Virus record (IMG/VR): IMGVR_UViG_3300045988_163643
Location: 1 to 64,000 of that record
Source: a virus
Strand: one strand, 5' to 3'
DNA length: 64,000 nucleotides
The notes beneath the pieces were generated by a model. That model saw only the letters and a program-made list of their open reading frames with translations, was not told the DNA's origin and made no database searches. Position numbers and translations under genes: made by a program. Positions 5,392-31,656 of this stretch are shown here, in pieces; position 1 is the stretch's first letter; every line of letters starts with the position of its first letter.

Positions 5392-6569
5392 CTATTTTAT
5401 ATTATTTAATTTTTTATATAAACACTTGTTGCATTCTTCTCCTATTTTAAGATATTTTCTAACTACGTCATCACTAATATTCATTTTATTGGCTATATCT
5501 ATAACCTTATATTTATTATTCCATAGTTCCCATGTTTTTACACATAAACTACTTTGACTTTCTTCCCATGCCAACCACCAATCTACATTAGATAAATCAA
5601 AGTAATTACTAAGTTCTTTTATGATGTTTTCTTTTAACCATTCTAAAGTAGAATACCTACAATCTATTACTATATAATTATCAATATGATTTTTAGCACA
5701 TTTATACTTAAATAAATCATTCATTTGTTCTTGCTCCAAAGTTCTACCTCTAGCACTACTTTCATAATGTTGTATCCCATTTATTTCTATTATACTATTT
5801 ATTCTAGGTAAATAAAAATCATAATAAAAATAATTTTTATCACTAAATTTTTTAGATGATAATTCAGTTATAAAATCTTCATCTAATTGTTTTAATATAT
5901 TAGCCATAAATTTATTTGGAATACTAATTCCATCAGAACAAATTTCACAAGAAAATCTTCTTTTTACTACATTATCTAATATTTTTTTATTCTTTGATAT
6001 ATTGCCACAATCTAAACATTTAAAATAATATTTTTTATGACTTCCATAAGCTATATTATAACAATCTTCAAAAGTTAAATTATTCTCAGGTATGGCAATC
6101 ATTTTGGCTATATCTGGATAATTATAAGCTAAAGAATCTTTCCAATGAGCTTTTTTTCTAACATTACAATACCCACATCTTCTTCCATTATAAAAATGAC
6201 TACAAGTTATTTTATATCCAATTTTATCACCTTTTCTGTTATAATTATGATAATCATTTTCTAAACAATACAACCAAACTTTTTTCCCGACTGTTTTGAT
6301 ATTTCTTTAGGATTAACTTTATTCTTCTCCCAATTCCATATGTCATCTAAATTTAATCCTAATTCAACTTCTATATGATGTGCAAAACTTTCTTCATATC
6401 TAAAAGGATGTTTTATTTCACCTTTTTTAAAACTTCCATAACTTTTATTATAATTTATAGTATTATCTTCAAATTGAACATCTATATCCTCATAACATCT
6501 ATAAGCTATAATCGTCATTTTTTCTCCTTGTGTATTTAGATTTGTTTCTCCGGTTCTGTCTTTTTTCAT
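5392..6569 (-). CDS. free-standing homing-endonuclease-like protein (Zn ribbons + PD-(D/E)XK/Vsr-like core). Split into ORFs 6261-6569 and 5392-6273; the full length needs a -1 shift
   Basis: Colinear paralog of the intact 26624-28024 ORF (EKMTIIAYRCY.DIDVQFED..., KKVWLYC.E..YHNY, GISIPNKFM, IIEI.G). Frames meet at GGA AAA AAG (6279-6287). Confidence 0.65.
6279..6285 (-). other. A_AAA_AAG slippery heptamer in the zero frame (candidate -1 frameshift site)
   Basis: GGA AAA AAG read in frame. A -1 slip continues GUU UGG... = KKVWLYC, as in the intact paralog. Confidence 0.4.
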
Positions 6570-6570
6570 T

Positions 6571-7083
6571 TTAAACCTCTCTTTTTATTTTCTTATACAT
6601 ATATAAACCAGTCACAATAGCATCGTAAATATCACTTGTTTTTTCTATTTCTTTTGTTTGTTTATCACTATATTCTCCAATATCTATATAATTTTCTCTG
6701 ATATAATTTGCTACTCTTTCTTTTGTAGCATTACCTACACCAATTACCCCTTTTCTTATTGTTGATGGCATATATACACCAATTACAATATTTTTTTTAT
6801 ATGACATTAATGCTTGGCATACAAACCCACATAATCTTGCTAACAAAGTAGATGTCTTTGGGTTTACACCAGTATAAGTATTTTCTATTGCTACATAAGA
6901 TATATCATATTTTTCAGCTAATTCTTTTAATGTATTTGCTATATAATGCATTCTTTTTTCATCTGACCTATTAAAATCAGATGATTTAGTGCATATTTTT
7001 CCACAATATATAATTTCATCATCATTTAATATTGCAAAACCTGTTGAGCTTAATGATAAGTCTAAAGATAATATTTTTTTCAT
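6571..7083 (-). CDS. ruvC: RuvC-like Holliday junction resolvase
   Basis: N-terminal ILSLDLSLSSTGFAIL catalytic Asp block, VAIENTY Glu block, C-terminal SDIYDAI; 170 aa. Confidence 0.8.
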   Translation of the reverse strand: MKKILSLDLSLSSTGFAILNDDEIIYCGKICTKSSDFNRSDEKRMHYIANTLKELAEKYDISYVAIENTYTGVNPKTSTLLARLCGFVCQALMSYKKNIVIGVYMPSTIRKGVIGVGNATKERVANYIRENYIDIGEYSDKQTKEIEKTSDIYDAIVTGLYMYKKIKREV

Positions 7084-7242
7084 CTATTCATCTTCACCTT
7101 CTTTAGTATAATAATATTCTTTTTCTAATAGAAATATTATTAGAGAAGATGCTTTTTTACCATATTTTTCACATAATTCATCAAGTATTTTTCCTTCTCT
7201 TTCATTTACTCTAAATGAAATGGTTTTACTTTTATTATTCAA
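7084..7242 (-). CDS. small ribbon-helix-helix (CopG/Arc-like) protein, TTG start
   Basis: Below the track cutoff. GGAGAG RBS then TTG; LNNKSKTISFRVNEREGKILDELCEKYGKKASSLIIFLLEKE fits a beta-strand plus two helices; stop abuts the ruvC ATG. Confidence 0.5.
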   Translation of the reverse strand: MNNKSKTISFRVNEREGKILDELCEKYGKKASSLIIFLLEKEYYYTKEGEDE

Positions 7243-7270
7243 GATATTCACTCTCCATTTTATGTTATTA

Positions 7271-7313
7271 TTATAATGTAATACATTTTACATTATTTTG
7301 TATTACATTATAA
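7271..7313. promoter_or_regulatory. perfect 14-bp inverted repeat TTATAATGTAATAC-15 nt-GTATTACATTATAA upstream of the RHH gene
   Basis: Arms at 7271-7284 and 7300-7313; about 30 nt upstream of the RHH start. Confidence 0.5.
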
Positions 7314-7331
7314 TAATAAGACTATTATGTT

Positions 7332-7973
7332 TTATTTTTTCTTTGTTTTCTTATTTTTACTTTCTTCGCATTCTTTAATATGTTTATTTATTATAACTTC
7401 TACTTCTCTAATCGCTTCATCTAATCGACCATTATTATTTTTTATTTCATTATATACAGTATGAACTCTAAAAGGCATAAAACGTTCATAATCATCTTTT
7501 AATCTTCTATCAACTTCTGCTTCTAAATCTCCTCTAGCTAATGCTCTAGCCTTTATTTCTTCTTGTGGAGCAGTTATAAATATTGGAACTATCTTATTAT
7601 TACCTACATATGCTTTAAGTTCTTTAAAACCAATTGAATCAACTATAACTATTAAATAATCATCTTTTTCCAATTCTGCTCTTTCTATACCATATCTCCA
7701 AGTTGCATCTTTTTCTATACCATTTTCTTCTACTTTAGTATGATATACTCTTTGTTCTACAAAATCTGTTCCTCTTTCAAAAAAATCTTTATCATTAATA
7801 AAATAATATTCTATACCTTCTGTTTCACCTTTTCTCATAGGTCTAGTTGTCGTACTAATTATTGGTTTGACCATATCTAAATCTTTTAAAACTTGTTTTA
7901 ATATAGTATCTTTACCAGTTGACATATATCCGAGTAATGCGAATATTTTCTTAGCTTTTACATTTCTACTCAT
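7332..7973 (-). CDS. gmk: guanylate kinase-like nucleotide kinase
   Basis: P-loop GYMSTGKDT and the TTRPMRKGETEGIEYYFI signature. Confidence 0.75.
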   Translation of the reverse strand: MSRNVKAKKIFALLGYMSTGKDTILKQVLKDLDMVKPIISTTTRPMRKGETEGIEYYFINDKDFFERGTDFVEQRVYHTKVEENGIEKDATWRYGIERAELEKDDYLIVIVDSIGFKELKAYVGNNKIVPIFITAPQEEIKARALARGDLEAEVDRRLKDDYERFMPFRVHTVYNEIKNNNGRLDEAIREVEVIINKHIKECEESKNKKTKKK

Positions 7974-8002
7974 TTACATCTCTCCTTTATTCATTTACTT
8001 AT

Positions 8003-8031
8003 ATTATACTAATGTTCTTATTAAAAGTCAA
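8003..8031 (-). promoter_or_regulatory. consensus promoter cassette
   Basis: -35 TTGACT, 17 nt, -10 TATAAT, ATAAGTAAATGA. Confidence 0.65.
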
Positions 8032-8249: not shown

Positions 8250-8270
8250 ATTATCAACTCCTTTACTTAT

Positions 8271-8299
8271 ATTATACTATTGATATTATTAAAAGTCAA
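8271..8299 (-). promoter_or_regulatory. consensus promoter cassette
   Basis: -35 TTGACT, 17 nt, -10 TATAAT. Confidence 0.65.
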
Positions 8300-8310
8300 T
8301 ATAAAAAGAA

Positions 8311-8342: not shown

Positions 8343-8346
8343 AATT

Positions 8347-11300
8347 TTAACTACATTTACTATATCCACAATTTAAACATGAATCACACCCATTAGTTTT
8401 TATTAATGATGGTTCTCCACATTCAGGACACACATTGCCTTTAAAATCTTCTTTTTTATCATTATTTTTATTTGGTTTTTCAACAATTTTTTCTATAACT
8501 TTTTCTTCTTTTCCTATCTCTTTTAAAAATGCTTTCATTTCTTTTAATATAGCCATACCACAATAACTACCATCTGATAAATGATTTCCTTTTCCTCTTT
8601 CTCTAGTAAAACTTGGACAAGCTGACACTCCTGCGAAGCTTTTCTCAATCATAGATAAGTCTCCACCGATTCTAAGTATAGATGACATTAATATGGCTAT
8701 ACATTGTAAGTTCTTTTCACATCCACCACTACCACTCTTAGTTATATAAACATCTTGTATAGTATTTTCACTAGGAGACCATCCTATGAATAGTTTAAGT
8801 TTTCCACAACCAATTATCAAATTACGTTTTACATAATAAGTATCTTCTGCTAAAGATTTCCATTGACCACGTTTTAATAATTCTTTTTCTTCATCTTCTT
8901 TTTCATCTGTAGTTGTAAGAATACCTTGTCTAGCACATCCATCACGATATATTGTTAATCCTTTTAATCCTTCTTTCCATGCTTCCATATACAATTCTTC
9001 AACTTCTTCTATTGTTGCTTCATTCGGTAAATTTATAGTTGAACTAATTGAAGCATCTATATGTTTTTGCCATACTCCTTGCATCTTAACTCTCATATGA
9101 GGATTTAAAGTTTGAGCAGTTACAAAGAAGTTAGGCAATTCTTCTTCTTCATTTAAACCATGAAGTTCCATATATTCTTTTGCTATTGGAGTGTATACTT
9201 TATAATAAACATCTCCCTCTTTATGAAGTGATTCAGTTTTTCTAGTATATGATAAGTTAAATATAGGTTCTATACCTCCACTTACTCCTATCATTGTAGA
9301 TATTGAACCTGTTGGTGCTATTGTCAATAACTGAGAATTTCTAAGTCCATATTTTTTTACTAATTCATAAGTTTCTACACTTGTATTATTTCTTAAAAAT
9401 TCAGAATCTAATATAGAAGTTTTATATTTAGGATAACAACCTTCTTCCTTAGAAAGTAATGCACTAACTTTTATTGATTCATTTGCTAACACCTTACCTA
9501 TAGTATCACATATTTCTATCGCTTCATCTGTGTCGTATTTTAATTCAAGTTTAATTAACATATCAGCTATACCCATAACGCCAATCCCTATTTGTCTATA
9601 ATCTCTTACAGTATCTCTTTGTATTTGTAATGGATGCAATGGTAAACCTTGGTCTAATACATCATTCATTGCTTTTACTATTGTATGAATGTCTTTTTTA
9701 AATGTACATATATCGAAAGTTTTATCGTTAACATAAGCTGATAAATTTACACTTCCCAATAAACAACTTCCACCATTTGGAAGAGGTTCTTCAGCGCCTC
9801 ACACTGTACGTTTCAACTATTTTTCGTACTGTGCGCTGGACTATCGCATGTGGTATCCTCCTTTATACCACCCCTCTCGCTTAGTCTCTCACGGTCAAGT
9901 TAACAACTCGTTCCGCCCTGTCACCATATAGTTAGGTTTCCAAGTCAATCAGAGAGGGTTTTAAATCCGCACATTATTTATTGGCTAACGGATTTACACC
10001 TGCATATTCAAATTCATCATCTTCACTTAATAAATTATAATCTTCTATTTTTGACCAATACAACACCCCTGGTTCCGCAAAGTCCCAGTTGTTTTTACAT
10101 AATAATTTAAATACTTCTTTAGCTTTAACAACTTTTTCCATTTTATCATTTTCTACTTCAAAATACAATGTCCAATCTTCATCATTTTCTACAGCTTTCA
10201 TAAAGTCATCGTTAACCCTTACTGATATATTTGCTTTAGTAACTTTATTTAAATCTGTTTTAATATTTATAAAATCTATAAGTTCAGGATGTGTACAATC
10301 TAATGATAACATTAATGCACCCAACATTTTTACTGTTGTTGGACTATATCTTACCTAATTATTTCATTAGGCTTGGATTCTATTGGGGTTATTAAGAAGA
10401 TATGTCTATCTTCTCCCCTAGTCTCTACACCTTCCTACCCAGTAGGCTCGGCTCGGTATTACACTACTCTTTAGTGCTTCCACCGATTTCTTCCAATTCA
10501 AGACGCAGTACATTTGCTTTTAAATACTTTCTTTGGAGTATGATAAAATCATCATTTTTTGGATATATATAATTTATAAATTTTAATACATCTTCTTTAT
10601 TTGAAAACTCTATTATATAACAATCTTCGTTAGATTTAGGTCTTATAGTTGATGATATTCCTATATTATTATATAACATTTTTTGAACACCTTCTAATAA
10701 GTGTAATTGTGATGTGAAAGATACTTTTTGCCATATTTTATTTCTATCTTTTCTTTTACCCCATGTTATGCAACCATCTGCATCAAAGAAACCTAATAAT
10801 AAGTATCTTTCTAAATCCTTTCTAACTCTAGGATAGTGTCTTTCTTTTTTTAATCGACCACTTGTAAATTTAAGTATATCATTTACTTTTCTTGAAGTTC
10901 TTGCTCTTGGAAATCTTCTTTTTTCTTTATTAAAAGTATTGTCTATACTTACATCAGATTCTATTATATTTGATATAAAGTCGATTATTTCTTTATCATT
11001 TTTTTCTACACTTATTTCTACTATATTTTTAGGTGTTATATTACTATCAGCCAATATAAAACCCAAAGCATATGCTTTTTCTTTTGTGTCTATTTTATTA
11101 AAATTATAATTACTTTTATGTTTTTTATATTTAGTATATTCATTTAAATTATATTTGTTTATCCAATAACCAACAGTACTTTTACCTATTCCTAATTCTT
11201 TAGCTATTGTTCTTGTTGATTTACCTTCTAATAATAATTTCAATAATTCATCTCTACTCATATTATCATACTCCTTATTTTTATTTTATATTTTATCTAC

Positions 11301-11786
11301 TCTATATATTTTCGATAAACAAAGCATTTAAAATTGTTAACGTCTTCCATTCTGCCCGATTGTAGACGTAACTTGAGAGAAGGTATCCATAAAACTACAA
11401 GCACCAGTAGTTTCTTTAGAAGCATTGTTTACTTTCATACCTTTAGCTCTTAATTTAGATATATCGACACCGCATCCACCACCGTAAGAAAATGTCCTAG
11501 CCAAATCACTACAAGTTTTATATATCGCTTCTATACTATCATCTGTTTCAAGTACATAACAGTTTGAATATGTTACTTTTTTACCATGTTTTTCTAATCC
11601 TCTATTGCTTAAAATTCTCCCACCAAACAAAAATTTCTTATCTCTAATTAATTGTTTAAGTTCTTCATCTTTATTTGATATTCTATCTAACCAATCTTCA
11701 AAACTTTCACCCTCAAATTGATATTTATTATGCCATATATCAATTCCTAACTGATTATCTTCTCCTAGCCATTCTTTTATATCCAT
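8347..11786 (-). CDS. nrdJ: class II (adenosylcobalamin-dependent) ribonucleotide reductase. Three exons: 11786-11340, 10321-9988, 9797-8347
   Basis: Exon ends join to ...TIGQNGRR|GALMLSL... and ...YAGVNP|C|AEEPLPNGGSCLLGSVNL...; C-terminal CPECG...CDSCLNCG Zn finger; joined length 743 aa. Confidence 0.85.
9798..9987 (-). ncRNA. ORF-less group I intron 2 of nrdJ (about 190 nt)
   Basis: Splits the Cys codon of NPCAEEPL (U|GC). The intron ends in G. Markedly GC-richer than its surroundings and has no ORF. Confidence 0.65.
10322..11339 (-). mobile_element. group I intron 1 of nrdJ carrying a LAGLIDADG homing endonuclease
   Basis: Interrupts GRR|GALM. The 5' exon ends in U and the intron ends in G. 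GC-richer non-coding core at 10322-10463. Confidence 0.7.
10464..11261 (-). CDS. LAGLIDADG homing endonuclease (double motif) with N-terminal HTH
   Basis: YALGFILADSNI and LLLGFFDADGCI motifs; N-terminal STRTIAKELGIGKSTVGYW. Confidence 0.85.
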   Translation of the reverse strand: MSRDELLKLLLEGKSTRTIAKELGIGKSTVGYWINKYNLNEYTKYKKHKSNYNFNKIDTKEKAYALGFILADSNITPKNIVEISVEKNDKEIIDFISNIIESDVSIDNTFNKEKRRFPRARTSRKVNDILKFTSGRLKKERHYPRVRKDLERYLLLGFFDADGCITWGKRKDRNKIWQKVSFTSQLHLLEGVQKMLYNNIGISSTIRPKSNEDCYIIEFSNKEDVLKFINYIYPKNDDFIILQRKYLKANVLRLELEEIGGSTKE

Positions 11787-11814
11787 ATTATCTCTCCTTT
11801 TAAGTTTAATATAA

Positions 11815-11830
11815 CCACTATATATTGTAG
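11815..11830. promoter_or_regulatory. NrdR-box-like site 1
   Basis: CCACTATATATTGTAG against the recalled consensus acaCwAtATaTwGtgt. Confidence 0.55.
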
Positions 11831-11845
11831 CATATAAAAAATAAG

Positions 11846-11861
11846 ACACTATATATTGTAT
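11846..11861. promoter_or_regulatory. NrdR-box-like site 2
   Basis: ACACTATATATTGTAT, 31 bp from site 1 (start to start). Confidence 0.55.
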
Positions 11862-12172: not shown

Positions 12173-13174
12173 TTATTTTGCTGAATTATCTGCATTATCT
12201 AAAGTCAATAATCTAATGTAATTTAAATATCCAATTTTTTTCACTAATTTTTCAGATGAACATTCTCTTTTTAACATCATATGATTATTTATTAACCAAG
12301 CTATATCCATAATATCTTTATCACAAAGTTTAGTATATTTTATTAATACATCTATAACATCATAAGCTGACATATTTTCATGATTATAATAATGACAATG
12401 TCTACCTTCTTCATCTTCTGTTTTTGCTATTGGTTTACTTATGTCATGCAACATAGAGGCTATTAATAAATTTTCATCAAGTTTACTAACTTCTTTAATT
12501 TTCTTATAACAAAAATACATATGTTTACTTAAAGATAAATTGTGCCATTTACTATCTTGTGGCATTTCTATGCAATTACTTAAGCCTAACTCAATCAATA
12601 AATTAATGTATTCTTTATAATCATCGCATTCAATAAATCTCTCTTTATCCATACCTAAGCCAAATTTTCTTCTATTGTCAATATATAATTTCATTCTATC
12701 ATCGTAATCTATAATAACTTCATCGAACCCTTCACATTTATGTGGTATTTCTATATTTTTATACATTCTTTCTACAACTTCATTAGGAACTTCTCTGTCT
12801 CTTGCTTCATTATCTATAATACAATTTGTTAAATTCTTATATTTAAATAAACAAATTGCTTTAGAATAATATTTTTTCATTTCTTTTAATAAGGCTCTTC
12901 TACGTTTGCTAGATATATTTGTAGCTTCATATATAGTCACATAACCATTAGATAAACTTTCTTTCGTTCTTTTCCTCATTATTTCAAATACTTCTTTATT
13001 TTTGCTTTGGTCTTCTATGTCATTTAATAATTCTTTTCTAATTTCATCTGATGATATAACTTCTATGTTTTTATTTTTATTTTCTTCTATATAATTTTTA
13101 ACCCAAGATGTTTTTCCACTTCCAGGTATACCAACTGTAATAATTAAGATTCCTTGCAATTTTTTTCCACCCAC
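12173..13174 (-). CDS. P-loop polynucleotide-kinase-like domain fused to an HD phosphohydrolase domain (RNA end-healing candidate)
   Basis: GIPGSGKTS Walker A at the N-terminus; C-terminal H...MLHDISKP...NH HD pattern; overlaps the RNA ligase gene. Confidence 0.7.
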   Translation of the reverse strand: MGGKKLQGILIITVGIPGSGKTSWVKNYIEENKNKNIEVISSDEIRKELLNDIEDQSKNKEVFEIMRKRTKESLSNGYVTIYEATNISSKRRRALLKEMKKYYSKAICLFKYKNLTNCIIDNEARDREVPNEVVERMYKNIEIPHKCEGFDEVIIDYDDRMKLYIDNRRKFGLGMDKERFIECDDYKEYINLLIELGLSNCIEMPQDSKWHNLSLSKHMYFCYKKIKEVSKLDENLLIASMLHDISKPIAKTEDEEGRHCHYYNHENMSAYDVIDVLIKYTKLCDKDIMDIAWLINNHMMLKRECSSEKLVKKIGYLNYIRLLTLDNADNSAK

Positions 13175-17420: not shown

Positions 17421-17452
17421 AAAAAAGAGTAGAGAAAAATCTCTACTCTTTA
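17421..17452 (-). terminator. intrinsic terminator hairpin
   Basis: AGAGTAGAG/CTCTACTCT stem. Confidence 0.65.
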
Positions 17453-19356
17453 TATGAAAAATATACTATTATCTTTATCAGCACAAATTATTTTAGTAGT
17501 TTTATTTGATTTTCTAAGTTCTTCTTCCATCTTATCTCTAAATTTATATTTACTATCATCACTATGATGTATAACAATTAAATTAGTATTAATACCTTTC
17601 ATCATTTTAATTATTTCTTCTCCTTGTATATGAGAAGACCATGTATTATATCTTATAACTTTAGCTTTCTTTTTAAATGACATATTTTCAATTTTAACTT
17701 CTTTAGTATTGTCTTTTAATAATAATCCTCCTACTGTCGTTGGAGCACAATAGCCAATTATCATTATAGTATAATTACTATCTTCTATATTTGCTTTTAA
17801 ATGATTTAATATTCTACCTATATTACACATACCAGCAGATGATATTACAATTTTTTGTTGTTCTTTATTAAGTGCTAAATTCATAGATGATTCAAAATCT
17901 TTTACAAAATGAAGTTTTTCCCATGATAATATTTTTTCAAACATATCTTTATCTTCTTTGTTTAATATTTGTTTATAAACATCATTGATTTCCAAAGAAA
18001 GTTTACCATCTAAGAATATAGGAGTTTTAAAATTTGGGTCATTAGAAAAAGTATTATATAAGTAATATAATAAATCTTGAGTTCTGGCTTGAGCAAAAGC
18101 CGGTATTAAAATTGAATGACCTTGTTTTAATTCATTGACTATATCGTCTTTCATTTTCTTTCTTTCTTTTTCGATATCTTTTGCATTAAATCCTCTTGAT
18201 AAATCTGAATAAGTTGCTTCTGTTATTACTAAATTAGCATTTGATATAGTTTTAGTTTTTTTACGGAATGGTTGTTGATTATTAAAACTACCTGTATCTC
18301 CACTATAATATATTTTTTTTGTAACTCCACTTGGCATTTTAAAGAATAATTCTATTGAAGTTGCTCCTACTATATGGTTATTTGGCAAAAGTCTAAAGCT
18401 AACATATTCGTTTAGTTCATGTATAACATCTTCTTCATAAGTAGAAGTCTTTGACAGCATTCTATATACATCGCTTTCAGTATAAAGAGGTTCTACTTTA
18501 TATCCTTGATTACTCATTTGTCTACAATTTCTTTGTAATATATAAGCACCATCTATCAATAAAGGTTCGGATAATTCTTTATTCTCATAACCCATAATAA
18601 ATTTATCTACATTATCTACTATAGCTGGTAGATTTCCTATATGGTCTAGTGATTTCAAAGATGTGAATGAGATACAAAACAAGCTTTTATTTGACCACAT
18701 TCACAAACTTTTTCAACCACCCCCTTATTAACTACATATTCTTCTCTTAAAGCACCATTCATTTGAACCATACCACATTCAATAAGAACTTTTTCATAGT
18801 CTCCTTCTTTTGTTGGATACGATAAAAGTATAGAAGTTCCAACAACTCCATTATGACTTTCTCCTACGAATTCAACTATTACTTTATTTTTATTTTTCTT
18901 ACTTATAATATATGGATTCTTTTTCTTTTTTTTCTTTTTCTTAATTACATTGAGATTTTCTTTTCTACAATCCAAAAAATCACCATTTATAAATTCTATT
19001 TTATTATCATTTCCTAATATGTAATTTTGTAAAGTTGTATTTTTGCCTAATACATCTCCAATGATACAAGAATGTTTTTTATTCCATCTTACATTTTTAC
19101 ATGTTTTTACATCATCTAAATCTATTAATACTCTTTCTTCAAGTTCTTCTTGAAATAAAGCATCATATAATACAATTTCAGCATAATCTTTATGTATTAT
19201 TATTTCATTATTGTCAAATTCTGTTACAGGACTATCTGATATACAAAAACCATATTTCCTATATTCATCCCAATGTTTTTTACAAAGTCCATTTTTATTT
19301 TTTTTGCTTAATAATTTTCCACATTGGCTACAGTATTTTTTATTATCTTTATCCAT
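17450..19356 (-). CDS. metallo-beta-lactamase/beta-CASP nuclease with N-terminal Zn-ribbon + degenerate HNH-like module. Split into ORFs 18655-19356 and 17450-18700 inside the HxHxDH motif
   Basis: The upstream ORF ends ...CFVSHSHL*. The other frame continues LDHIGNLPA. Downstream: ITEATYSD and IVIHHSDD. Confidence 0.7.
18647..18660 (-). other. candidate translational bypass: take-off CUU (18658-18660), stop UGA, landing CUA (18647-18649)
   Basis: Skipping 11 nt gives a perfect HSHLDHIG. Confidence 0.35.
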
Positions 19357-23200: not shown

Positions 23201-26054
23201 AACAAGGTGATTCTGATATACTTTCTACTACTCCTTTAAATACTTTTGAATCTTTTATTATTTTTCCCCAATATTCATCATTTTCATATTGTTCTAAATT
23301 TTTAGCTATTTCATCATATTTACTAACATGCATATCATTTGCCTTACACCATAGTCTAAAAGCAGATGAATCTTGTAAAGGTTTATATGATAAAATCCAA
23401 GCACAATTTTCTTCGCCTAATAAATCTTTAGTTGCTTGTATAAATACTGAACGGTCTTCTGTATTTAAATCTACATCAGGCAATGAACGTGTACCTAATA
23501 TACGTTCTATACTCATAAATCTAGTTGGATACAATGGAACTGGTGCAGATAACCTATCTATTTCTGTTAAACCTAATAATTTATTTATAATAAAACTTAC
23601 AGCCGAATTATGAACTATCATATTATTAAGTAAATAACTATGCTCATTTTCAACTTCTATATCATATACTGTGGTTTTTTGTTTAGGTAATATAATGATT
23701 TCCTTAATAGGAAGATAATAGTAATTATTATCCTCGAAAGTTCTTTCATTTTTTTTCTGTGAATAATTAGAATTTTTATTTAATCTTAATTTATAAGATT
23801 CTTTACATAAATACCCTTCTTTCATTTTATGTTCTTTTCTTACGCTTAAACTATTTACTCCTTCATCCGTCATTAAACATAATAATTTATATGCGTTTAT
23901 TAAAGATTTTGAAGTATTATCGAAATTGATTCTATATTCACAAAAGCTTCCATCTGATAATCTTAATCCTTTTACTATACCTAATAAATTTTCTTTTGAT
24001 TGATTAAACCATTTTTCATTAAATATTTTATCTTTTCCTTTTTTAGATTCAAATAATTCCTGTTTAACAAAATTACAAAATACTGTAGAATTAATATATA
24101 ATTGACTTAATTTTTTAGTTTTACTTACATTTTCATATATAGATTTATTTAATTTAGATGCTATATTATAAAATATTTCTCTATTATATTTATCTTTTTC
24201 AGTAGTATTGTTTATGGCTAATCCAACACTAGTTTTTTTAGAAGTAAATCCGTCGCCATACATCAATCCTATAAATATATTAAATTCTTTATCTATTTCA
24301 ATATATCTTTCTAATTTTGAAAATTGTTTAGATTTAACATATTTAGAATATTCTTCTTGGGTATTAAAAGGTATATAATCCATTAAAGCTTTATATTTAT
24401 CTTTTTTCCTATTAAAACAATTTTTTTTCATATTTGCAAAATTTTCTACTAATGACTTACCAACACCTATTTTTCTTGCAACATCACTAGGAGAATATTT
24501 ATAAATAGTATTAGTTTTTTCATATATATATTTATCATCAAAATCAAATCCGTTGATATTATAATCATTTAAATCAATTATCTTATTTAAACTATCCGTA
24601 ACATTTATTTTAGGTACACATACATAATCTGTTTTCACTATATCTTTTGCTTGTATCCATTTTAATGTATTATTTCTGTTTATAAGTATTTTATGGTCTA
24701 AAGTACATACAGTTGGATAATATTTATCAGTACCATAGATATGTTTAATTTGAACTAATTCTTCTTCTATATCATATTTTGCAGTGTTAATTACCTTATT
24801 AAAATTTCCACTTTCTGTAATTACATAATCACCTATTTTAACATCCTTTATAGATTTTAAAGAATTTTTTGTATGAACTAAAGCATCTTCAGTAAAACAT
24901 CCTCTTCCAGTCTTGGTTAATAAACCATTATATTTATTTATTGCTCTTTGACATATTTTATAATCTAATATAAAATAATCTTCCATATGTGTTTTTTCGA
25001 TTATATTAAATTCATATTTTATAGCATCTAAATACTCATGCCATTTTTCTTTAGGTATCGTATCTCTTATTTCCACCCATCTTTTATTAATTATATCTTT
25101 TAATTCTTTATTTGGATTATCAGATATTGATGGCATTTTAATTTCTTTATCCAATATAATATTTTCACATTCGTCAAAAATTAAAGTATTATTAATTGCG
25201 ACTTTTATTTGTTCTTCACTTAATACATTTTGTTTATTATATCTTTCTATTATAGTTTCTACATTAGGATAATCTAATATAAAATTTGTTTCTTCTTTAT
25301 ATATAATACCTTTTGCTTTAAGAAATAATTCTCTATAAATATAATCTTGTGGATTAATATAATGAGAATCATTACCATGAATGATATTAATATTATATTT
25401 TTCACTTAAACATATAATTTTTCTATTAAGATTTTTCTGTATATCTTCATTATGGTTTTGAACTTCTAAATAAAAATTATCACCAAAATATTCTTTCATT
25501 TTTATAATCCAATCATCTAAGCCTTCATCATTTCTTAAACGACCAGCAACACAAGCAGTTGTTACGATTACATTGTTTGGATTAACACTAAATAATAATT
25601 CATCATCTATTCTATTTTTATAATATACTCCATCTATATTGCTATAGGATAATATTCTATTTAAATCTCTATATCCATCTTTGTTTTTTGCTATTATAAC
25701 TAAGTGATAATTAGAATTATCTTTTTCTTTTCTATCTTTAACATAATATACTTCTGCACCAACTACCATTTTAATACCTTTGTATGATTTATCACAAACA
25801 TCTTTATATTGACATTTTTCACAATTATGTTTAGTATATTCATTATTTTCTTGAGTAAGTTTCACACATACTTCACTACATAGAGTATGTGCTTCATATA
25901 CGTTACCTTGATAACCATGTTCAGTAGTAAAATATATTGCATCTTTACCATCTAATTCAATTGCTCTAACTATATATTCTATTGGTTTAGCGACTACATC
26001 TAAACTTTTAATATTGCTATATATTTTATGTGAATGATAATTATTACATCTCAT
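20298..26054 (-). CDS. dnaE: DNA polymerase III alpha (DnaE-type). Exons 26054-23082 and 21926-20298; exon 1 carries an intein
   Basis: PHP motif YHSHKIYS..D; TGRG|intein|SAVSFIINKLLGLTEID; exon join ...YKYLKND|VLTYLAVTVW... matches the spacing of K.DfLGL..LTvi. About 1102 aa after removing the intein. Confidence 0.8.
21927..23081 (-). mobile_element. group I intron in dnaE carrying a LAGLIDADG endonuclease
   Basis: The 5' exon ends in U (GAU) and the intron ends in G. GC-richer non-coding flanks at 22912-23081 and 21927-22041. Confidence 0.6.
22042..22911 (-). CDS. LAGLIDADG homing endonuclease (intron-encoded)
   Basis: YWLGLLLADGHI and FVRGMFDGDGSI motifs; N-terminal HTH-like segment. Confidence 0.85.
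   Translation of the reverse strand: MLRVNEWIISREIICLLNKINGDEILHKSNGGFEFWDKEKDNILNLYFKEKLSTIQIGKIYNCDGSTIQRQFKRWDIKLRKRYNGIYEVDENYFSTIDTEEKAYWLGLLLADGHISKRNKVMLCMKDLDEIEKFKKSLKSTHPIKYNKDGNPSISIGCKQLCDDLRNIGFTNRKSYEIDINRVLSFIPKELLNHFVRGMFDGDGSIKVYHYNYLKNPQYHFGYTGTKETCIFIQNYLKFNTKIKKEGDYTYTCVTRNFNKIKEIYYILYKDANIYLDRKYKIFINEIIK
23607..24899 (-). mobile_element. intein (431 aa) with LAGLIDADG endonuclease domain, inserted in the GRGS motif of DnaE
   Basis: Starts CFTEDALV, block B TLDHKIL, ends IVHN followed by Ser; internal IGLMYGDGF and VKGLRLSDGSF. Confidence 0.85.
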
Positions 26055-26140: not shown

Positions 26141-26146
26141 AACAAA

Positions 26147-26605: not shown

Positions 26606-26623
26606 TTTTACATCTCCCCTCTT

Positions 26624-28024
26624 TTATATAAAATTTTCATAATACATCCATTGTAATTTGGTTCCATCTTCTAATTCACCACATGATTTGCGTTTGCCAT
26701 TACAACAATCGCTTATATGGCTTTTAGCTTTTATATTATAAAATTCTGCTCCTTCTTTGATTGTTTCAAATATTTTACCAGTTGTTATACATATAATTTT
26801 TCTAGAATAACGTATCAATCCTTTTGTTTTATCCATACCATTTTTTTTACTTTCTTCCACTGTGTAATCACATCTTTTACATTCTACACCACGTTTTAAA
26901 TATGTAGTTACTGTACTTTGACATATATTTAATATATTACCTATCTCTTTTGTATCATGTAATCCATTGTTCCATAACTTCCATGCTTCAATACATTTTG
27001 ATTTTTGGCTTTCTTCCCATATTAAATTCCAATTAATATTATTTAAATTAAATAAATTGGATAACTCTGAATTTAATACTTGATTTTTTATATAATTAAA
27101 TTTATCATGAGTATAAATATAACTATCTATTAATTTTATTCTTATAGTTTTATATCCTCCATATTTCATATTAAGAAAATCTCTCCAATAATCATATTCT
27201 ATTAAATGTCTATCTTTAAAACATCCATCCATTTCGATTATAATATTATAATCTTTTAAAAAGAAATCAACATGTTGATTGTTTTTAAAATAATATGGTG
27301 AATATTCAGATTTAAATTTAACATTAAGTTGATTTAATAAACTATACATAAACTTATTAGGTATAGAAATACCATCTCCACATTTTTCACATGAGTAATA
27401 TCCTCTTGATACTATTGAATTTAGAATTAATTTTTTATTAGATATTATTTCACATTTATAACATTCAAAATAAAATCTTTTTTTACTATGACAAGCTATA
27501 TTATAGCAATCTTCAAAGGTTAAATCATTCTCAGGTATAGAAATCATTTTAGCAATTTTAGGATATTTATATGCTAAACTATCTTTATAATGAATTTTAT
27601 TATGCCCACAATAACTACACCTTTGATTGTTGTAAAAACTACCACATTGAATTTTATATCCAATTTTATTACCTTCTCTATCATAATTGTGATATTCTTT
27701 TTCTTGACAATATAACCAAACTTTTTTATCACTACATCTAGTTATTTTATAAGGATTAATATCTAACTCATTATTCTTTTCCCAATTCCATATGTCATTT
27801 AAATTTAATCCTAATTCAACTTCTATATGATAAGCAAAAGAATCCTCATATCTAAAAGGGTGTTTTATGTTTCCTATTTTAAAATTATAATATGTTTTAT
27901 TATATGAGACAGCTCCATCTTCAAACTGAACATCTATATCATCATAACATCTATAAGCTATAATCGTCATTTTTTCATTTTTTTTATTATAGACTATTTC
28001 TCCTATTTTATTATTAGTATTCAT
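26624..28024 (-). CDS. free-standing homing-endonuclease-like protein (intact paralog): Zn ribbons, PD-(D/E)XK/Vsr-like core, C-terminal NUMOD-like DNA-binding module
   Basis: CSYCG, CYKCE, CEKCGDGISIPNKFM, DFFLKDYNIIIEMDG; tail IICITTGKIFETIKEGAEFYN...CCNGKRKSCG. Confidence 0.65.
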   Translation of the reverse strand: MNTNNKIGEIVYNKKNEKMTIIAYRCYDDIDVQFEDGAVSYNKTYYNFKIGNIKHPFRYEDSFAYHIEVELGLNLNDIWNWEKNNELDINPYKITRCSDKKVWLYCQEKEYHNYDREGNKIGYKIQCGSFYNNQRCSYCGHNKIHYKDSLAYKYPKIAKMISIPENDLTFEDCYNIACHSKKRFYFECYKCEIISNKKLILNSIVSRGYYSCEKCGDGISIPNKFMYSLLNQLNVKFKSEYSPYYFKNNQHVDFFLKDYNIIIEMDGCFKDRHLIEYDYWRDFLNMKYGGYKTIRIKLIDSYIYTHDKFNYIKNQVLNSELSNLFNLNNINWNLIWEESQKSKCIEAWKLWNNGLHDTKEIGNILNICQSTVTTYLKRGVECKRCDYTVEESKKNGMDKTKGLIRYSRKIICITTGKIFETIKEGAEFYNIKAKSHISDCCNGKRKSCGELEDGTKLQWMYYENFI

Positions 28025-29816
28025 TAAAATGGTATATCTTTGTCTTTCTTATTCTTTTCGATGTGAGTTTGAGCATTTATAATTTCAAAACACGGTTGTT
28101 TTTTATAATCATCCCAACCTATTGAAACAGTCATAAAATCTATAATTATATCAGGTCTTCCAAATATACCCTTCATTTCTTTTTCACATAAAAAGTCTTC
28201 TTTAAATACCCTCGAACAGAAATTTTTCTTAAATTGTATTCCATCTAATTCAAAAACCAACAATGTTGGGTATGGATTTCTTATATTTTTACTATTAATC
28301 TTTAAATTAGATAGACCAAAGGTCGGCTTAGGACAAAACGTAAACCATAATGGTTTTAAATCAACTATTTCATTCATTTGTTTAAATGATATATCATCTA
28401 AATCTATTACACAATCTATATTAATTGCTACATCTTCTACTTCTACATCTTCCATAACTTTATCAATTCTCTTTTTCACTCTTCTTATATTACTATAATC
28501 TGTTTCTACACCAGCAGAACCATTATGTCCTTTTACTGTAAGTATTTCTGTCGATTCAAGAATTGATTTAAAATCATCTATACCATAAGTTCTCATACTA
28601 CCTATTAATCTATCTTTTTTAGGTGAAACAGATAATAATACTACAGGTTTTTTATATATGTCAATTAAATTAGTGGCTATTAATCCAGTTATTCTTTTAT
28701 CAACTAATTTTCTTTCTTCGTCTATTATTGTTAAAACTTTACTATCATTACAATTATTTTCTTCTATATATTTCTCACAAAGTTTTATACATTCTTTTTT
28801 CTTTTTATCTTGCTTTTGCTTAACACTTTTAGCAATTCTAACCATATGTTGTTGTAATGTTTCTATTTGAACTTGTGGGTTAGGATTATTTTTAGATTTT
28901 CTAGGTTTATATTCAAATTCTTCTTCTTCTCCTATTAATGCTTTAAATAATAATTCACATTCTTCCATACTACCAAATCTTATAGTTCCATTTATAATAT
29001 TAGCTAAATTAAACGATATTGTTTCAGGTGTTATATCATTTAAATCAAAGTCTTTTAATATTTCTTTAAAGAATTCATTTCTTATATTTTTTAAACCTTT
29101 ATGCACTAAGTATCCAACTTCTTTATCATGTATATCCATTATATCAGCTATACAACCAATAGCAACTAAATCCAAATAATGTTCTAACTCATTCTCAGTC
29201 ATTCCGACTAGGAGCTTATAAACAACTCCTACACCACTTAAATTATGTGAATATTCACCCAACTGATTATTGACAATAACTCCAATAAGAGCGTTACTTG
29301 TATCTCTAAATACTGTTTTAAACTCTTCTCCATTAGACTGTGGTTGGTGATGGTCAATGACTAAAATTCTTTTGCCTATTGATAATAACTCTTTAATTTC
29401 CTTAAAATCATTAGTAGAAGCATCAGGTATTATCAAAAATTCTACATTAGATTTCTTTATTCGTTTGAAAACTTTTGGGTCAAGTCCATGAAATTTTCCA
29501 TCATGAAAAAATAAAGTTATCTTTTCTTTAGGAATTTGACATTCGTTAATTAAAAATAAATACATTAAAGCAGAACTAGTATATCCATCTACACATCGGT
29601 ATCAACTAAGATACCGATATCACCCCCTTTATCAAGTTCACTTATAAATAACTCTATTCCTTTATCTACGTTCTTTATTTTAAATGGCATTTCTTGATAT
29701 TCTGAAGTAGGATTAAGTAAAAAATTTACATCATTTTCAGTCAATCCTCTATTTTTTAATACTATATCTCTTAATGTTTTACCAAAGGTGTTTTCTGTTT
29801 TTATATTATATTTCAT
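28024..29816 (-). CDS. recJ: RecJ-like DHH/DHHA1 exonuclease. Split into ORFs 29589-29816 and 28024-29565(+) inside DHH motif I
   Basis: The upstream ORF ends ILVDTDV*. The other frame reads DGYTSSALMY. Downstream: VIDHHQP and KGHNGSAG. Confidence 0.75.
29587..29594 (-). other. candidate +2 shift site GUG-UA-GAU (GUG followed by UAG; overlapping GUA)
   Basis: Skipping UA gives VDTDVDGYTSS, the canonical DxDxDG. Confidence 0.35.
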
Positions 29817-29828
29817 ATATTCACCAAC

Positions 29829-30050
29829 CTAATCTTCGTATTCTTCTATTTCTAATAAATTAACATACAAAAATGTTTTATATACGCTTTTATCATAACT
29901 AGATACTTCAAGTTCCACATAACTATTTGTTAAGTCAGCTATTTTTCCTATTACATTTTCATCTTTTGTTCTTACTCTTACATAATCTCCAACAATCAAA
30001 GTAAATTCATTACCATTATTTTCTATTGTATACATTTTTCTTATTTCCAT
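29829..30050 (-). CDS. hypothetical protein
   Basis: 73-aa ORF. Confidence 0.55.
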   Translation of the reverse strand: MEIRKMYTIENNGNEFTLIVGDYVRVRTKDENVIGKIADLTNSYVELEVSSYDKSVYKTFLYVNLLEIEEYED

Positions 30051-30187
30051 TATTTTATATCTTCTCCTTTTTCTAACAATGTGTTATATCCTAATAATTC
30101 ATAAAATGAATAATAACTTAATTTTTTACCTGCTATTTTTGTAATCCCAAATCTATCCTTCATGCGTTTTATAAGAATACTTTTCAT
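30050..30187 (-). CDS. hypothetical 45-aa protein
   Basis: Below the track cutoff. AAAGGAGAG RBS + ATG after a promoter cassette; TAATG overlap with the next gene. Confidence 0.45.
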   Translation of the reverse strand: MKSILIKRMKDRFGITKIAGKKLSYYSFYELLGYNTLLEKGEDIK

Positions 30188-30221
30188 ACTTAATCTCTCC
30201 TTTATTTACTTATTTACTTAT

Positions 30222-30250
30222 ATTATACTATCATTCTTATTAAAAATCAA
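30222..30250 (-). promoter_or_regulatory. promoter cassette (-35 TTGATT)
   Basis: 17 nt, -10 TATAAT. Confidence 0.55.
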
Positions 30251-30253
30251 TTG

Positions 30254-30613
30254 TTATTTAAGATTTTCTTTTGATAATTTTTCTGCAACTTCATTATTTT
30301 CATTGAAATAGAAAAATACATCATGAAATTTTTTAACTTCTTTATCTAATTCTTTAGTTCTACTATAGTGCCCATCAAAAGAACAGTGTATTCTTAAAGG
30401 TAAATCTTTATTATTTATAAGTCTACAACTGTCTAAGATAGAAGAATAAATAACATCTTCTATTTTCTTATATTGTATAACTCCACTACTAACTTTTTTA
30501 TCTGCAATAAGTTCTAATTCATCATTAATGTATTTTAAATAAATACCATAACTAGCTTTAGTTGTTTTGTTTATTTTATTAACAAATATATAAACTTCTA
30601 TCAAACTATTCAT
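30254..30613 (-). CDS. hypothetical protein
   Basis: Start placed at the internal Met whose ATG overlaps the primase stop (ATGAATAG). Confidence 0.5.
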   Translation of the reverse strand: MNSLIEVYIFVNKINKTTKASYGIYLKYINDELELIADKKVSSGVIQYKKIEDVIYSSILDSCRLINNKDLPLRIHCSFDGHYSRTKELDKEVKKFHDVFFYFNENNEVAEKLSKENLK

Positions 30614-31656
30614 ATTTTCTAGCACTTCTATAAAGTTCAAGAAATGCAAATTCACCCCTATCAATTGGAGATTGTTTTAAATCTAAGTATTTACCATTTT
30701 TATCTTCTATGATATAACACTCAAGATTAAAATTTACTATTTTTTGACATATTTTATTTAACTTATTTTCCCATTTCTCTCCTTCTTCTCTATCAAATGC
30801 TAAATATACCTTTTCACAACCATTAACTTTTAAAAGATTAAGTTGATATTCTGATACTGAACTTCCACCTACTGCAACAGAAGGATTATTACCATAAATT
30901 GAATCCATTTTCAATACTGATTTTTCTGCTTCAAATATAATACATTTTTTATATTCTTTTATTGATTCCTTATTTTTATCAATACCATATGCATTCATTG
31001 AAAGTTTATGTTTATATGTTATTTTATGTGTAAATGATGTATAAGGTACATATTTTCTTCCAAATACTTCTACTTGTTTCTTATCTAAATTTCTCTCCCT
31101 TATGCCGACCAGCCTTCCAAACTGGTCTCTATGTGGGTATGATTATTGAATTATTTTCAATGTTAAATTTAATACCATATTTATTCATAGTTTCAATTGA
31201 TATACCTTCACAAATCCATTCGATAGCTTTATAATTGACAAAAGTATTAAGTATGCTTCCATCATATTGTGGCAATTGTTCATTAAAGTCTATTTCTTTT
31301 TTTATAGGTTTTCTTATAGGAACTTCTTTTTTCTTAGGTCTACCAAATCCTTTTTGAAAATTTATATTTAAATTAAAATAATCCTCAATGAACTCAACTG
31401 ATTCTGCAAATGTTAAATCCATTACTTCTTGAACTAATGTTATTATATCAAAACTACCACAATTTGTATAACAATGGAAAATTAAAGAGTCTTTATATAA
31501 TTCACATTTCCATGATTCACCACCATGACATAGAGATGTATTCATAACCATTTTTTCATTTGTTTCCATCTGTTCATTAAATTCTCCGCCTAAATATAAA
31601 ACTAAATCAACTATCATATCCAATGTAAGTTTATCTTTAAGTTCTTTACTATTCAA
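30606..31656 (-). CDS. dnaG: DnaG-type primase (CHC2 Zn finger + RNA polymerase core + TOPRIM). Split: 31129-31656 and 30606-31142 in the +1 frame
   Basis: CHGGES..HCYTNCG Zn finger. ...NNSIIIPT* continues in the other frame as RDQFGRLVGIRERNL...KYVP. TOPRIM IIFEAEKSVL...VAVGGSS...LAFDRE. Confidence 0.75.
31128..31137 (-). other. candidate +1 shift site CCC ACA UAG A
   Basis: Either CCC to CCA re-pairing or skipping U before AGA restores the FPI.D..G..vG..gR-like block. Confidence 0.3.

Follow-up and report, generated by a model that had tools for sequence, protein, structure and literature searches.

The window analysed here is a stretch of 64,000 nucleotides (nt), positions 1 to 64,000 of the virus record IMGVR_UViG_3300045988_163643, with a G+C content of 25% and with every gene on the minus strand. 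Between 5 and 34 kb it holds a phage replication module that comprises a DnaG-like primase, a RecJ-like DHH exonuclease, an intein-bearing DnaE and a β-CASP/MBL nuclease, together with an RNA ligase and PNK, a ribonucleotide reductase (RNR) and a RuvC-like protein. The genes of the primase, the RecJ-like exonuclease and the β-CASP/MBL nuclease, as well as a free-standing homing endonuclease gene (HEG), are each interrupted in this region. An earlier note on the same DNA had described these four breaks as lying within conserved motifs and being fixed by a short shift, and had named three possible explanations: a phage that relies heavily on translational recoding, systematic errors of assembly, or lesions of very recent date. 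As detailed below, all four breaks are real and the four-site pattern is biologically meaningful, although the break in the β-CASP/MBL gene (hereafter MBL) is an insert of 11 nt and not a shift of 1-2 nt. Three aspects were absent from that note: the proposed 11-nt bypass, the repeated breaks at the same codon boundary in distant lineages, and the proposed re-pairing on a downstream cognate codon.

An exact protein look-up placed the window within a phage genome of ~198 kb that has been assembled repeatedly. The same genome is present in ENA ERZ28624220 scaffold_1 (197,740 bp), JGI 3300030009, ENA ERZ1745248 and Logan SRR1930134. The NCBI nr entries of its proteins are DAL23982-DAL23988 (Caudoviricetes sp.), and the assemblies from which related contigs with the MBL insert derive are labelled human gut. 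A megablast of the window against INPHARED retrieved no annotated close relative, the nearest annotated phages being Clostridium and Clostridioides phages with only ~70% identity over DnaE. In database searches, single-ORF homologs were plentiful for the MBL nuclease (~630 amino acids, aa), the RecJ-like protein (~596 aa) and the primase (~350 aa), which indicates that the corresponding pair of open reading frames (ORFs) in the window represents one gene in each case, and Pfam recognised Beta-Casp, DHH, Toprim/DnaG zinc ribbon and DUF4379 in the repaired proteins. Other overlapping ORF pairs were considered as recoding sites and rejected, because the members of each pair are distinct genes (S51 peptidase/YpsA, RNA ligase/PNK and M18 peptidase/sigma factor, among others), so that only four breaks occur in the 64 kb besides the intein- or HEG-type interruptions of DnaE and RNR. 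At the four sites the zero frame reaches a stop 0, 0, 1 and 5 codons past the inferred shift point, in keeping with the earlier statement that it does so at or within two codons in three cases.

The chance that sequencing or assembly produced the breaks is negligible. Two of the sites do invite the suspicion, given that the HEG site is a homopolymer and that the primase change is from CC to CCC. Against it, the RecJ and primase sites are identical across the ENA scaffold, JGI, SPAdes and Logan pipelines: loci from four assembly pipelines (L063-L066) are exact substrings of the window, with the RecJ junction in 4/4 and the primase junction in both of those reaching it. Moreover, the MBL and primase breaks also occur in related IMG/VR and metagenome contigs, these diverged relatives carrying the same breaks, and an 11-nt insert or a 2-nt duplication is atypical of Illumina errors. 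Systematic assembly errors are therefore excluded, and the interruptions recur across independent assemblies and relatives.

Inserts at one codon boundary of the β-CASP/MBL nuclease

The MBL gene of the window is laid out as follows:

18658..19356, minus strand: N-terminal ORF of the β-CASP/MBL nuclease (233 aa), ending ...ACFVSHSHL; with its stop the ORF spans 18655-19356
18647..18660, minus strand: proposed hop site, with take-off codon CTT at 18660-18658 and stop TGA at 18657-18655
18657-18647, minus strand: insert of 11 nt, TGAAATCACTA, with the putative landing codon CTA at 18649-18647; decoding would resume at GAC 18646-18644
17450..18646, minus strand: C-terminal part of the nuclease (398 aa), starting DHIGNLP; Beta-Casp domain, E = 3.5e-26

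The junction reads cat tca cat CTT [TGAAATCACTA] GAC cat, that is, HSHL, 11 nt and DHIGNLP. The insert thus splits the Leu and Asp codons of HSH-L-DH and has the form CUU-UGA-…-CUA-GAC. Once repaired, HSHLDH aligns without gaps to intact homologs and to the HAHLDH of PDB 8yhd_H among the β-CASP structures, the spacing of HxHxDH being invariant across the superfamily. The 11-nt insert is unchanged in four IMG/VR relatives with 97-98% protein identity; loci with the identical insert are L001-L004 and L013-L016, and it is found in five more metagenome contigs, including one of 204,520 bp from ERZ779830 and a human-gut contig of 197,570 bp. The cluster of the N-terminal ORF holds 85 distinct variants of 232-233 aa, a single variant occurring on up to 107 contigs. 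Purifying selection acts on the two halves alike, as the ratio of nonsynonymous to synonymous substitution (dN/dS) between the window and insert-sharing relatives is 0.02-0.03 for the N-terminal part and 0.05-0.06 for the C-terminal part (dS 0.13-0.23).

Further inserts were sought by protein search, in the DNA of the homologs, by an alignment-based scan of IMG/VR and by a scan of GTDB genomes. The protein search returned C-terminal-only homologs (54-68% identity) beside intact homologs (61-65%). Exact-pattern scans with the MBL and RecJ junctions of the window found no match in IMG/VR or GTDB genomes, and a pattern scan of metagenomes, in which most matches were due to chance, contained at least 10 true MBL sites among the matches listed, all of them known variants. 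In total, 12 distinct inserts of 1, 1, 2, 2, 6, 6, 7, 8, 8, 8, 9 and 11 nt are found at the x|D boundary of HxHxDH, in lineages down to ~30% identity:

Window clade: CTT[TGAAATCACTA]GAC, 11 nt
L018-L020: CTT[TAACTA]GAC, 6 nt, in frame
L021-L023: CTT[TGAAGCTA]GAC, 8 nt
L025: CTT[TGAAACTA]GAC, 8 nt
L011, L074, L075: CTG[TGAGTCTA]GAC, 8 nt
L012: CTG[TGAACTA]GAT, 7 nt
L069: CTT[TGAGAACTA]GAC, 9 nt, in frame
L071: CTG[TGACTT]GAC, 6 nt, in frame
L070: CTC[TA]GAT, 2 nt
L067: CTC[TC]GAC, 2 nt
L068: CTT[T]GAC, 1 nt, equal to the prfB site CUU UGA C
L283 (very distant subfamily): GCC[T]GAT, 1 nt

These variants share a common form. A stop (UGA, UAA or UAG) stands directly 3′ of the take-off codon in 11 of the 12, all ten inserts of at least 2 nt put a CUN codon for Leu right in front of GAY, where decoding would resume, and in the variants whose landing site does not overlap the take-off codon this landing codon is CUA or CUU (8/8). 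On the other hand, the inserts span all three frame classes, three being in frame and nine out of frame, and hence a frameshift in one direction would not account for them all. In intact relatives the sequence is CAT CTT GAC (L073) or CAT TTA GAC (L072), and only re-pairing of the peptidyl-tRNA from the x codon to the last codon of the insert, with decoding resumed at GAY, would restore HxHxDH in every variant.

Reading of the stop as sense, by means of an alternative genetic code or a suppressor tRNA, would suit the three in-frame inserts (TAACTA, TGACTT and TGAGAACTA), and TGA is rare as a stop in the window, where the 80 minus-strand ORFs of at least 60 aa end in TAA (57), TAG (19) or TGA (4). 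Nevertheless, this explanation is extremely improbable: sense reading is of no help to the nine out-of-frame variants or to the three window sites, all out of frame; it would lengthen HxHxDH from within by 2-3 residues; the stops concerned include TAA; and the genes of the window contain no other in-frame stops.

A second clade of insert-bearing genes (L018-L025) belongs to phages of 133-140 kb. In this clade dN/dS is 0.02-0.12 for the downstream part (dS up to 0.49) and 0.08-0.28 for the upstream part, with dS reaching 0.64 over both parts, and the downstream constraint is alike for 6-nt in-frame and 8-nt out-of-frame inserts. Such low values argue that the downstream parts of the MBL genes are translated in the frame given by re-pairing. 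In a neighbour-joining tree, insert-bearing and intact genes stand side by side in one clade, and the 6-nt and 8-nt forms are intermingled among very close relatives, which indicates that the insert evolves faster than the surrounding gene. At locus positions 1183-1200 of L018-L025, TAACTA, TGAAGCTA and TGAAACTA alternate while the flanking 40 nt are nearly identical. In this clade the 80 nt upstream of the putative hop rank with the best-conserved stretches of the gene, though not uniquely so; as the peptide encoded upstream of the hop is the conserved catalytic core, its conservation is uninformative with regard to a nascent-peptide signal.

The constraint on the downstream parts also bears on the notion that the halves are translated separately and assemble into an active enzyme, as for T4 gp39/gp60 or the MobE-split NrdA. 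HEG-associated split phage enzymes are known (bioRxiv 10.1101/2022.08.31.505936), and the downstream MBL frame of the window has an ATG 45 nt upstream of the stop. In most variants, however, the first downstream start codon falls past the essential D-H metal ligands (135 nt after them in L018, ~30 nt after them in L068, and after DHxG in L070 and L071), though the codons of these ligands are strictly conserved, so that independent initiation cannot explain the constraint. Neither is there a ribosome-binding site ahead of the downstream parts, and the cut lies within a metal-binding motif and comes with no added tails, unlike the known split cases. Assembly from separate halves is thus quite improbable.

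Some observations extend beyond the Leu-type inserts. The 1-nt break of L283 (IMGVR_UViG_3300033741_000108, L283:884-902) is in a β-CASP gene of a shorter subfamily, which reads CAT TCG CAT GCC T GAT CAT and so presents GCC-UGA; it looks like an independent origin at the identical x|D boundary. Other lineages at 30-54% identity (P0488, P0499 and P0534 from the representative library, and the RecJ-like P0425, P0438 and P0443) have ORFs that begin at HxHx|DH or DxDx|DG, the codon before the motif being Ser, Val or Pro and not Leu. In L070, an 82-kb Logan contig, an IS605 OrfB/TnpB-like gene (L070:3142-4146) lies ~500 nt downstream of the insert-bearing MBL gene.

The primase, the RecJ-like gene and the broken homing endonuclease

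The second interruption affects the DnaG-like primase, with the following elements:

31135..31656, minus strand: N-terminal part of the DnaG-like primase in the zero frame, ending ...IIIP at CCC 31137-31135
31129..31137, minus strand: proposed +1 site CCC ACA TAG, with CCC at 31137-31135 and CCA at 31136-31134
31133-31131, minus strand: next codon CAT; the zero-frame stop TAG is at 31131-31129
30606..31133, minus strand: C-terminal part in the +1 frame (HRDQFGRLVG...KYE), Toprim region
31097..31117, minus strand: hairpin GACCAG...CUGGUC of 8-9 bp, starting 7 nt 3′ of CCC (z = -2.75)

The zero-frame ORF (31129-31656) ends ...IIIPT-TAG, and the +1 frame is open to 30606. The junction, ata CC[C] A CAT AGA GAC, corresponds to IIIP, 1 nt and HRDQFG, with TAG one codon on. 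Intact homologs at 81-84% identity have IIPHRD, of which L058 and L059 read ATA CCA CAT AGA GAC, and full-length homologs of ~350 aa share their C-terminal end with the +1 frame of the window. The extra C (CCA→CCCA) is kept in all six relatives (L005-L010) at ~91% nucleotide identity, where the site is free of indels. The cluster of the N-terminal ORF contains 164 distinct variants, nearly all of the 15 listed having 175 aa, and one variant occurs on up to 125 contigs. With dN/dS at 0.10-0.14 for the N-terminal part and 0.11 for the C-terminal part in the +1 frame, both halves are again under purifying selection.

Re-pairing from CCC to CCA yields the IIPHRD of the intact homologs, and the His of that motif would come back only by a +1 shift at CCC_A, since Thr would stand in its place if the shift took place at ACA_U, one codon later. 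Re-pairing of a P-site tRNA from a weakly paired codon to a better one is a known principle of +1 frameshifting, and this is what would be expected of tRNA-Pro on CCC, which is the rarest Pro codon in the window ORFs (7/341). The hairpin downstream of the site possibly acts as a stimulator of the shift. Two loci with an intact primase show a phrog_953 HNH endonuclease just upstream of the primase gene (L058:1613-2374 and L059:5-610).

The RecJ-like gene is interrupted within its DxDxDG motif:

29592..29816, minus strand: N-terminal ORF of the RecJ-like DHH exonuclease (75 aa), ending ...ILVDTDV; with its stop 29589-29816
29589..29594, minus strand: proposed +2 site GTG TAG, with take-off codon GTG at 29594-29592 and stop TAG at 29591-29589
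29592-29590, minus strand: putative landing codon GTA; decoding would resume at GAT 29589-29587
28024..29589, minus strand: C-terminal part (DGYTSS...; DHH and DHHA1 domains)

The junction reads gat acc gat GTG [TA] GAT GGA, that is, DTDV, 2 nt and DGYTSS. Compared with intact alleles, two nucleotides (TG/GT) are duplicated; the sequence in six IMG/VR relatives is GAT GTA GAT GGA, and 77 of the 77 readable RecJ loci in IMG/VR are intact. The N-terminal ORF nevertheless forms a cluster of 33 variants, all of 75 aa, with one variant on up to 107 contigs and hundreds overall; the 15 that were read (15/15) end in DTDV*. A lesion private to the window was rejected for this reason. Several distinct C-terminal ORF variants of 513-515 aa likewise stay open. 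The arrangement GUG-UAG/GUA at +2 has the same form as the MBL variant CUC-UAG/CUA at +2 of L070, and distant C-terminal-only ORFs start at or next to DVDG (P0332 and P0333 at 76%, P0430 and P0431 at 54%, and also P0425 with MTPDVDGY..., P0438 with ...SRVDGY... and P0443 with ...CPVDGF...). At the RNA level, positions 29535-29620 can form an 11-bp hairpin upstream, whose 3′ arm reaches into the take-off codon and ends there, and a second hairpin further downstream (z = -3.1). As intact alleles have the hairpins of the RecJ and primase sites too, these structures do not mark recoding. On balance, a +2 correction by the ribosome is slightly favoured for the RecJ-like gene.

In three relatives (L008-L010; IMG/VR contigs 166499, 160472 and 152729), at ~2690-4000, an insertion of ~1.2 kb sits right before the DHH codons of the RecJ-like gene, where a selfish element has struck a second conserved motif of this gene. 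The 11 differences between the intact allele P0302 and the repaired RecJ-like protein of the window all fall within residues 13-219, around two DHH-family motifs.

The last of the four breaks affects one of two paralogous HEGs:

5392..6569, minus strand: broken free-standing HEG (DUF4379 zinc finger and PvuRts1I-like domain; phrog_4538 family), paralog of 26624-28024
6279..6285, minus strand: A_AAA_AAG heptamer (A6 run), at which a -1 shift gives SGKKVWLYC
26624..28024, minus strand: intact HEG paralog, directly after the RecJ-like gene

The ORF 6261-6569 reads ...SGKKFGCIV-TAG and in the -1 frame the sequence is KKVWLYCLENDYHNY, in agreement with the intact paralog; the junction on the minus strand is tcg gGA AAA AAG ttt. 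The heptamer is in phase for a -1 shift of the dnaX type, RNA structure at the site is not significant (z = 0.21) and there is no flanking stimulator. Intact alleles of 392-394 aa with at least 90% identity (P0311, P0313 and P0315) encode KKVWLYC, the window having changed from A7 to A6, and other alleles are broken at the same A-run, P0231 in the opposite direction and P0233 in the same one. Since intact alleles and an opposite-sign frameshift exist at this run, the best reading of the HEG break is homopolymer decay of a selfish gene, at most leaky by virtue of the heptamer. The relative L105 has ~1.7 kb less DNA at this locus, consistent with absence of the HEG.

Decay has to be weighed for the other three genes too, as pseudogenes or as tolerated null alleles of dispensable functions. 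The HEG, with its intact alleles of 392-394 aa, its frameshifts in opposite directions and its apparent absence from L105, follows such a course, and intact RecJ alleles at 98% identity circulate beside the broken allele. For the MBL and primase genes, however, dN/dS of 0.02-0.14 is found in the halves between break-sharing genomes, no second lesion is present across the 85 variants of the MBL N-terminal ORF and the 164-180 variants of the primase clusters (the ORFs being intact in the members read), and the MBL insert retains its take-off/stop/landing form despite the changes in length. In the RecJ-like gene, the 33 variants of the N-terminal ORF and several of the C-terminal ORF (513-515 aa) are all open. 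Inactivation is therefore an unlikely account of these three genes. Very recent lesions in particular are excluded for MBL and primase, whose breaks are common to relatives at dS 0.13-0.29 with both halves under purifying selection, and are unlikely for RecJ in view of its 33 distinct N-terminal variants.

Proposed peptidyl-tRNA re-pairing and known recoding systems

Three of the four breaks, those in the MBL, primase and RecJ-like genes, are probably small inserts in catalytic motifs that the ribosome corrects through re-pairing of the peptidyl-tRNA. In the step that the three sites would share, the P-site peptidyl-tRNA dissociates from its codon and pairs anew, shortly downstream, with an NNA codon that is also cognate; decoding would then resume at the following codon to give a full-length enzyme with the motif intact. 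At the MBL site, tRNA-Leu would detach from CUU while UGA occupies the A site and, 11 nt further on, pair with CUA to produce HSHLDH. In the primase, tRNA-Pro would slip by +1 from the rare CCC to CCA, giving IIPHRD, and in the RecJ-like gene tRNA-Val would move by +2 from GUG, with UAG in the A site, to GUA, giving DTDVDG. The junction peptides predicted under re-pairing are ACFVSHSHLDHIGNLPAIVDNVDK for MBL, FNIENNSIIIPHR for the primase, and ...GILVDTDVDGYTSSALMYLF... / ...LVDTDVDGYTSSALMYLF... for RecJ; the tRNAs predicted are U34 species able to read CUN, GUN and CCN. With respect to the heavy translational recoding that had been suggested for this phage, the comparative data make programmed recoding very probable in the MBL and primase genes, make it plausible in RecJ, and render it unlikely in the HEG.

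Removal of the extra nucleotides at the RNA level would be another way to the same product, be it by editing, by cleavage and re-ligation with the phage RNA ligase (13144-14379) and PNK/HD protein (12173-13174), or by transcriptional slippage. The window does encode an Rnl1-type RNA ligase and a kinase/HD protein, and polymerase slippage is conceivable on the A-run of the HEG. However, inserts of 1-11 nt without a common RNA structure fit no known endonuclease-plus-ligase splicing, matched Leu codons with an adjacent stop are features read by ribosomes and not by nucleases, and the sites other than that of the HEG are not homopolymers. Altogether, correction of the RNA is very unlikely, and re-pairing on the ribosome is the preferred explanation.

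Several points weigh against re-pairing. In the 1-nt MBL variants (CUU→UUU and GCC→CCU) the landing codon is non-cognate. None of six variants of the MBL hop has an RNA structure stabler than shuffled sequences (z from -0.15 to +1.8) or conserved, a Shine-Dalgarno (SD)-like stimulator ~3 nt upstream is absent at all sites, the RecJ GGGGGUGA element lying 27 nt upstream, and hop efficiency could consequently be low; moreover, the window encodes no tRNA genes. In the primase, the A-site codon ACA is the commonest Thr codon (408/872 in the window ORFs) and provides no pause signal, and the hairpin kept in the broken relatives is present in the nearest intact relative (L058) too. As for RecJ, intact alleles of 596-598 aa coexist with the broken one, P0302 being 98% identical to the repaired window protein, a tandem duplication makes matched codons automatically, and the gene may be dispensable. 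Finally, the mechanism as a whole is drawn from the comparison of sequences.

The proposed mechanism is itself known, since peptidyl-tRNA re-pairing underlies frameshifting, hopping and bypassing. To our knowledge, programmed bypassing is confined to very few systems: gene 60 of T4 with its homologs, a single lineage of yeast mitochondria, and candidate cases from Streptomyces phages. As in gene 60, the MBL stop lies directly 3′ of the take-off codon, decoding would resume after the landing codon, and the insert sits in a metal-binding region of a phage gene for DNA metabolism with HEG neighbours. In contrast, the gaps measure 1-11 nt instead of the 50 nt of gene 60, the MBL site lacks the take-off and 5′ stem-loops and any other detectable structure, the protein is of the β-CASP family with no added N- or C-terminal extensions and no homology to the gene 60 cassette, and the adjacent HEGs come from several unrelated families and are not always present.

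Synthetic stop-hops provide a closer parallel. The in-frame MBL variants CUU UAA CUA and CUG UGA CUU resemble them, the CUU UGA N5 CUA of the window being a longer version, and the classic stop-hop construct reportedly used Leu CUU/CUA codons. Unlike these constructs, which are reporters of low efficiency, the MBL variants are natural, conserved, in an essential motif and under purifying selection. Stop-hops have been described, with natural in-frame occurrences not known as of a 2016 review, and shorter counterparts of gene 60 have long been presumed to exist (PMC5009743). We infer that the MBL variants form a natural series of short stop-hops, which changes readily in evolution while staying at a single codon boundary of the catalytic motif.

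In Magnusiomyces capitatus mitochondria, 81 'byps' with bypassed inserts of 27-55 nt have been reported (PMC5009743; bioRxiv 10.1101/2022.08.31.505936). As with these byps, many frame-disrupting inserts in essential genes would be tolerated through bypassing by the ribosome, and the codon next to the take-off codon is unreadable in the A site. The byps differ in being mitochondrial, longer, similar to GC-cluster mobile elements, and scattered instead of placed at one catalytic boundary. Among frameshifting sites, the CUU UGA C of L068 (Leu-Asp) is that of prfB, L283 has the analogous GCC UGA U, and the RecJ and MBL sites of the window share the stop in the A site. Unlike prfB, these sites lack both the SD-like element at a spacing of 3 nt and any connection with release-factor autoregulation; in the window, RecJ needs +2 and MBL +11 instead of +1, the CUU UGA C shift site is not present, and the primase uses CCC_A with a sense codon in the A site.

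With regard to the primase, +1 frameshifting on Pro CCC is known from the structural genes of Listeria phage PSA, and CCC-N slippage from bacteria. The primase would rely, as in the PSA type, on tRNA-Pro moving from CCC to the overlapping CCA. In PSA a stop follows CCC, whereas the primase has the common ACA with the stop one codon further; in addition, the shift in the primase would be obligatory for function rather than make a second, longer product. The broken HEG shares with the -1 sites of dnaX and of insertion sequences an in-phase A_AAA_AAG at which a -1 shift restores KKVWLYC; it differs from them in lacking a flanking stimulator or structure and in the existence of intact A7 alleles and opposite-sign frameshifts. 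A full-text literature search, of incomplete coverage, retrieved no account of phage genes for β-CASP, RecJ-like or primase proteins being recoded.

The MBL locus offers a compact natural series with gaps of 1, 2, 6, 7, 8, 9 and 11 nt and with UGA, UAA and UAG as stops, which could show how hop efficiency varies with the size of the gap, with the stop used and with how well the take-off codon matches the landing codon. There is also a practical consequence. Gene callers split these phage genes in hundreds of public contigs, and the primase, RecJ-like and β-CASP genes of this phage group are thus systematically mis-annotated as fragments.

Homing endonucleases and the position of the inserts

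HEGs flank the MBL gene in L001/L013, L011, L012, L018, L020, L021, L023, L069 and L071, and they are of several kinds. A phrog_953 HNH endonuclease lies directly after the MBL gene in L018, L020, L021, L023, L069 and L071; a GIY-YIG/I-HmuI-like endonuclease follows it in L011; and a HEG of the window type (phrog_4538) follows it in L001 and L013, a related ORF preceding the MBL gene in L012. In the window, the HEG at 26624-28024 is directly 3′ of the RecJ-like gene, and relatives with an intact DVDG motif are without that HEG. The GIY-YIG/I-HmuI-like endonuclease of L011 (L011:1602-2461) is itself split, into ORFs of 78 aa and 175 aa.

In T4, the 50-nt insert of gene 60 protects the genome against MobA (bioRxiv 10.1101/2022.08.31.505936). 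As a working idea, the inserts described here may likewise shield target sites against homing endonucleases, which are numerous at these loci. If true, the logic of MobA and gene 60 would be generalised, with an insert guarding a conserved target since translation ignores the insert. This link is weakened by the MBL inserts that have no adjoining HEG (L019, L022, L025, L068 and the window itself) and by the HEG-like neighbour of the intact MBL locus L073. An alternative for the location of the inserts is that expression of the nuclease is throttled, the truncated product being surely catalytically dead. A still broader proposal is that phages of gut Firmicutes carry a class of micro-bypasses of 1-11 nt, in which stop-stimulated hopping arises repeatedly at the boundaries of catalytic motifs and confers immunity to HEGs; hopping would then be a general resource in this arms race, and the in-frame MBL variants would be the first natural in-frame stop-hops. 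Such a generalisation is possible but rather doubtful, and equally tentative is the set of boundaries that it would include, HxHx|DH in β-CASP, DxDx|DG in the RecJ-like protein and P|H in the primase.

Other features of the window concern mobile elements and RNA repair. One of the four TGA-ended ORFs ends at the MBL hop site, and one or two more adjoin the start codon of the next gene, so that free-standing, genuine TGA stops are very rare in this phage. The RNR gene is in at least three pieces (11337-11849, 9974-10327 and 8347-9759, minus strand), with a LAGLIDADG/HTH-like ORF (10464-11261) between the first two. In DnaE (Pol III alpha; 20298-26054, minus strand), the intein corresponds to residues 386-816 of a 991-aa ORF, the relatives L005 and L007 being without it, and the C-terminal DnaE piece (20298-21830) is split from the first piece by a HEG-like ORF (22042-22911). 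When the interrupted RNR and DnaE genes were compared with Rfam for group I introns, nothing matched, even at E = 0.1. Lastly, the Rnl1-type RNA ligase gene (13144-14379) overlaps the kinase/HD-domain gene (12173-13174) on the minus strand, and the two look like the RNA-repair pair T4 Pnkp/Rnl1.

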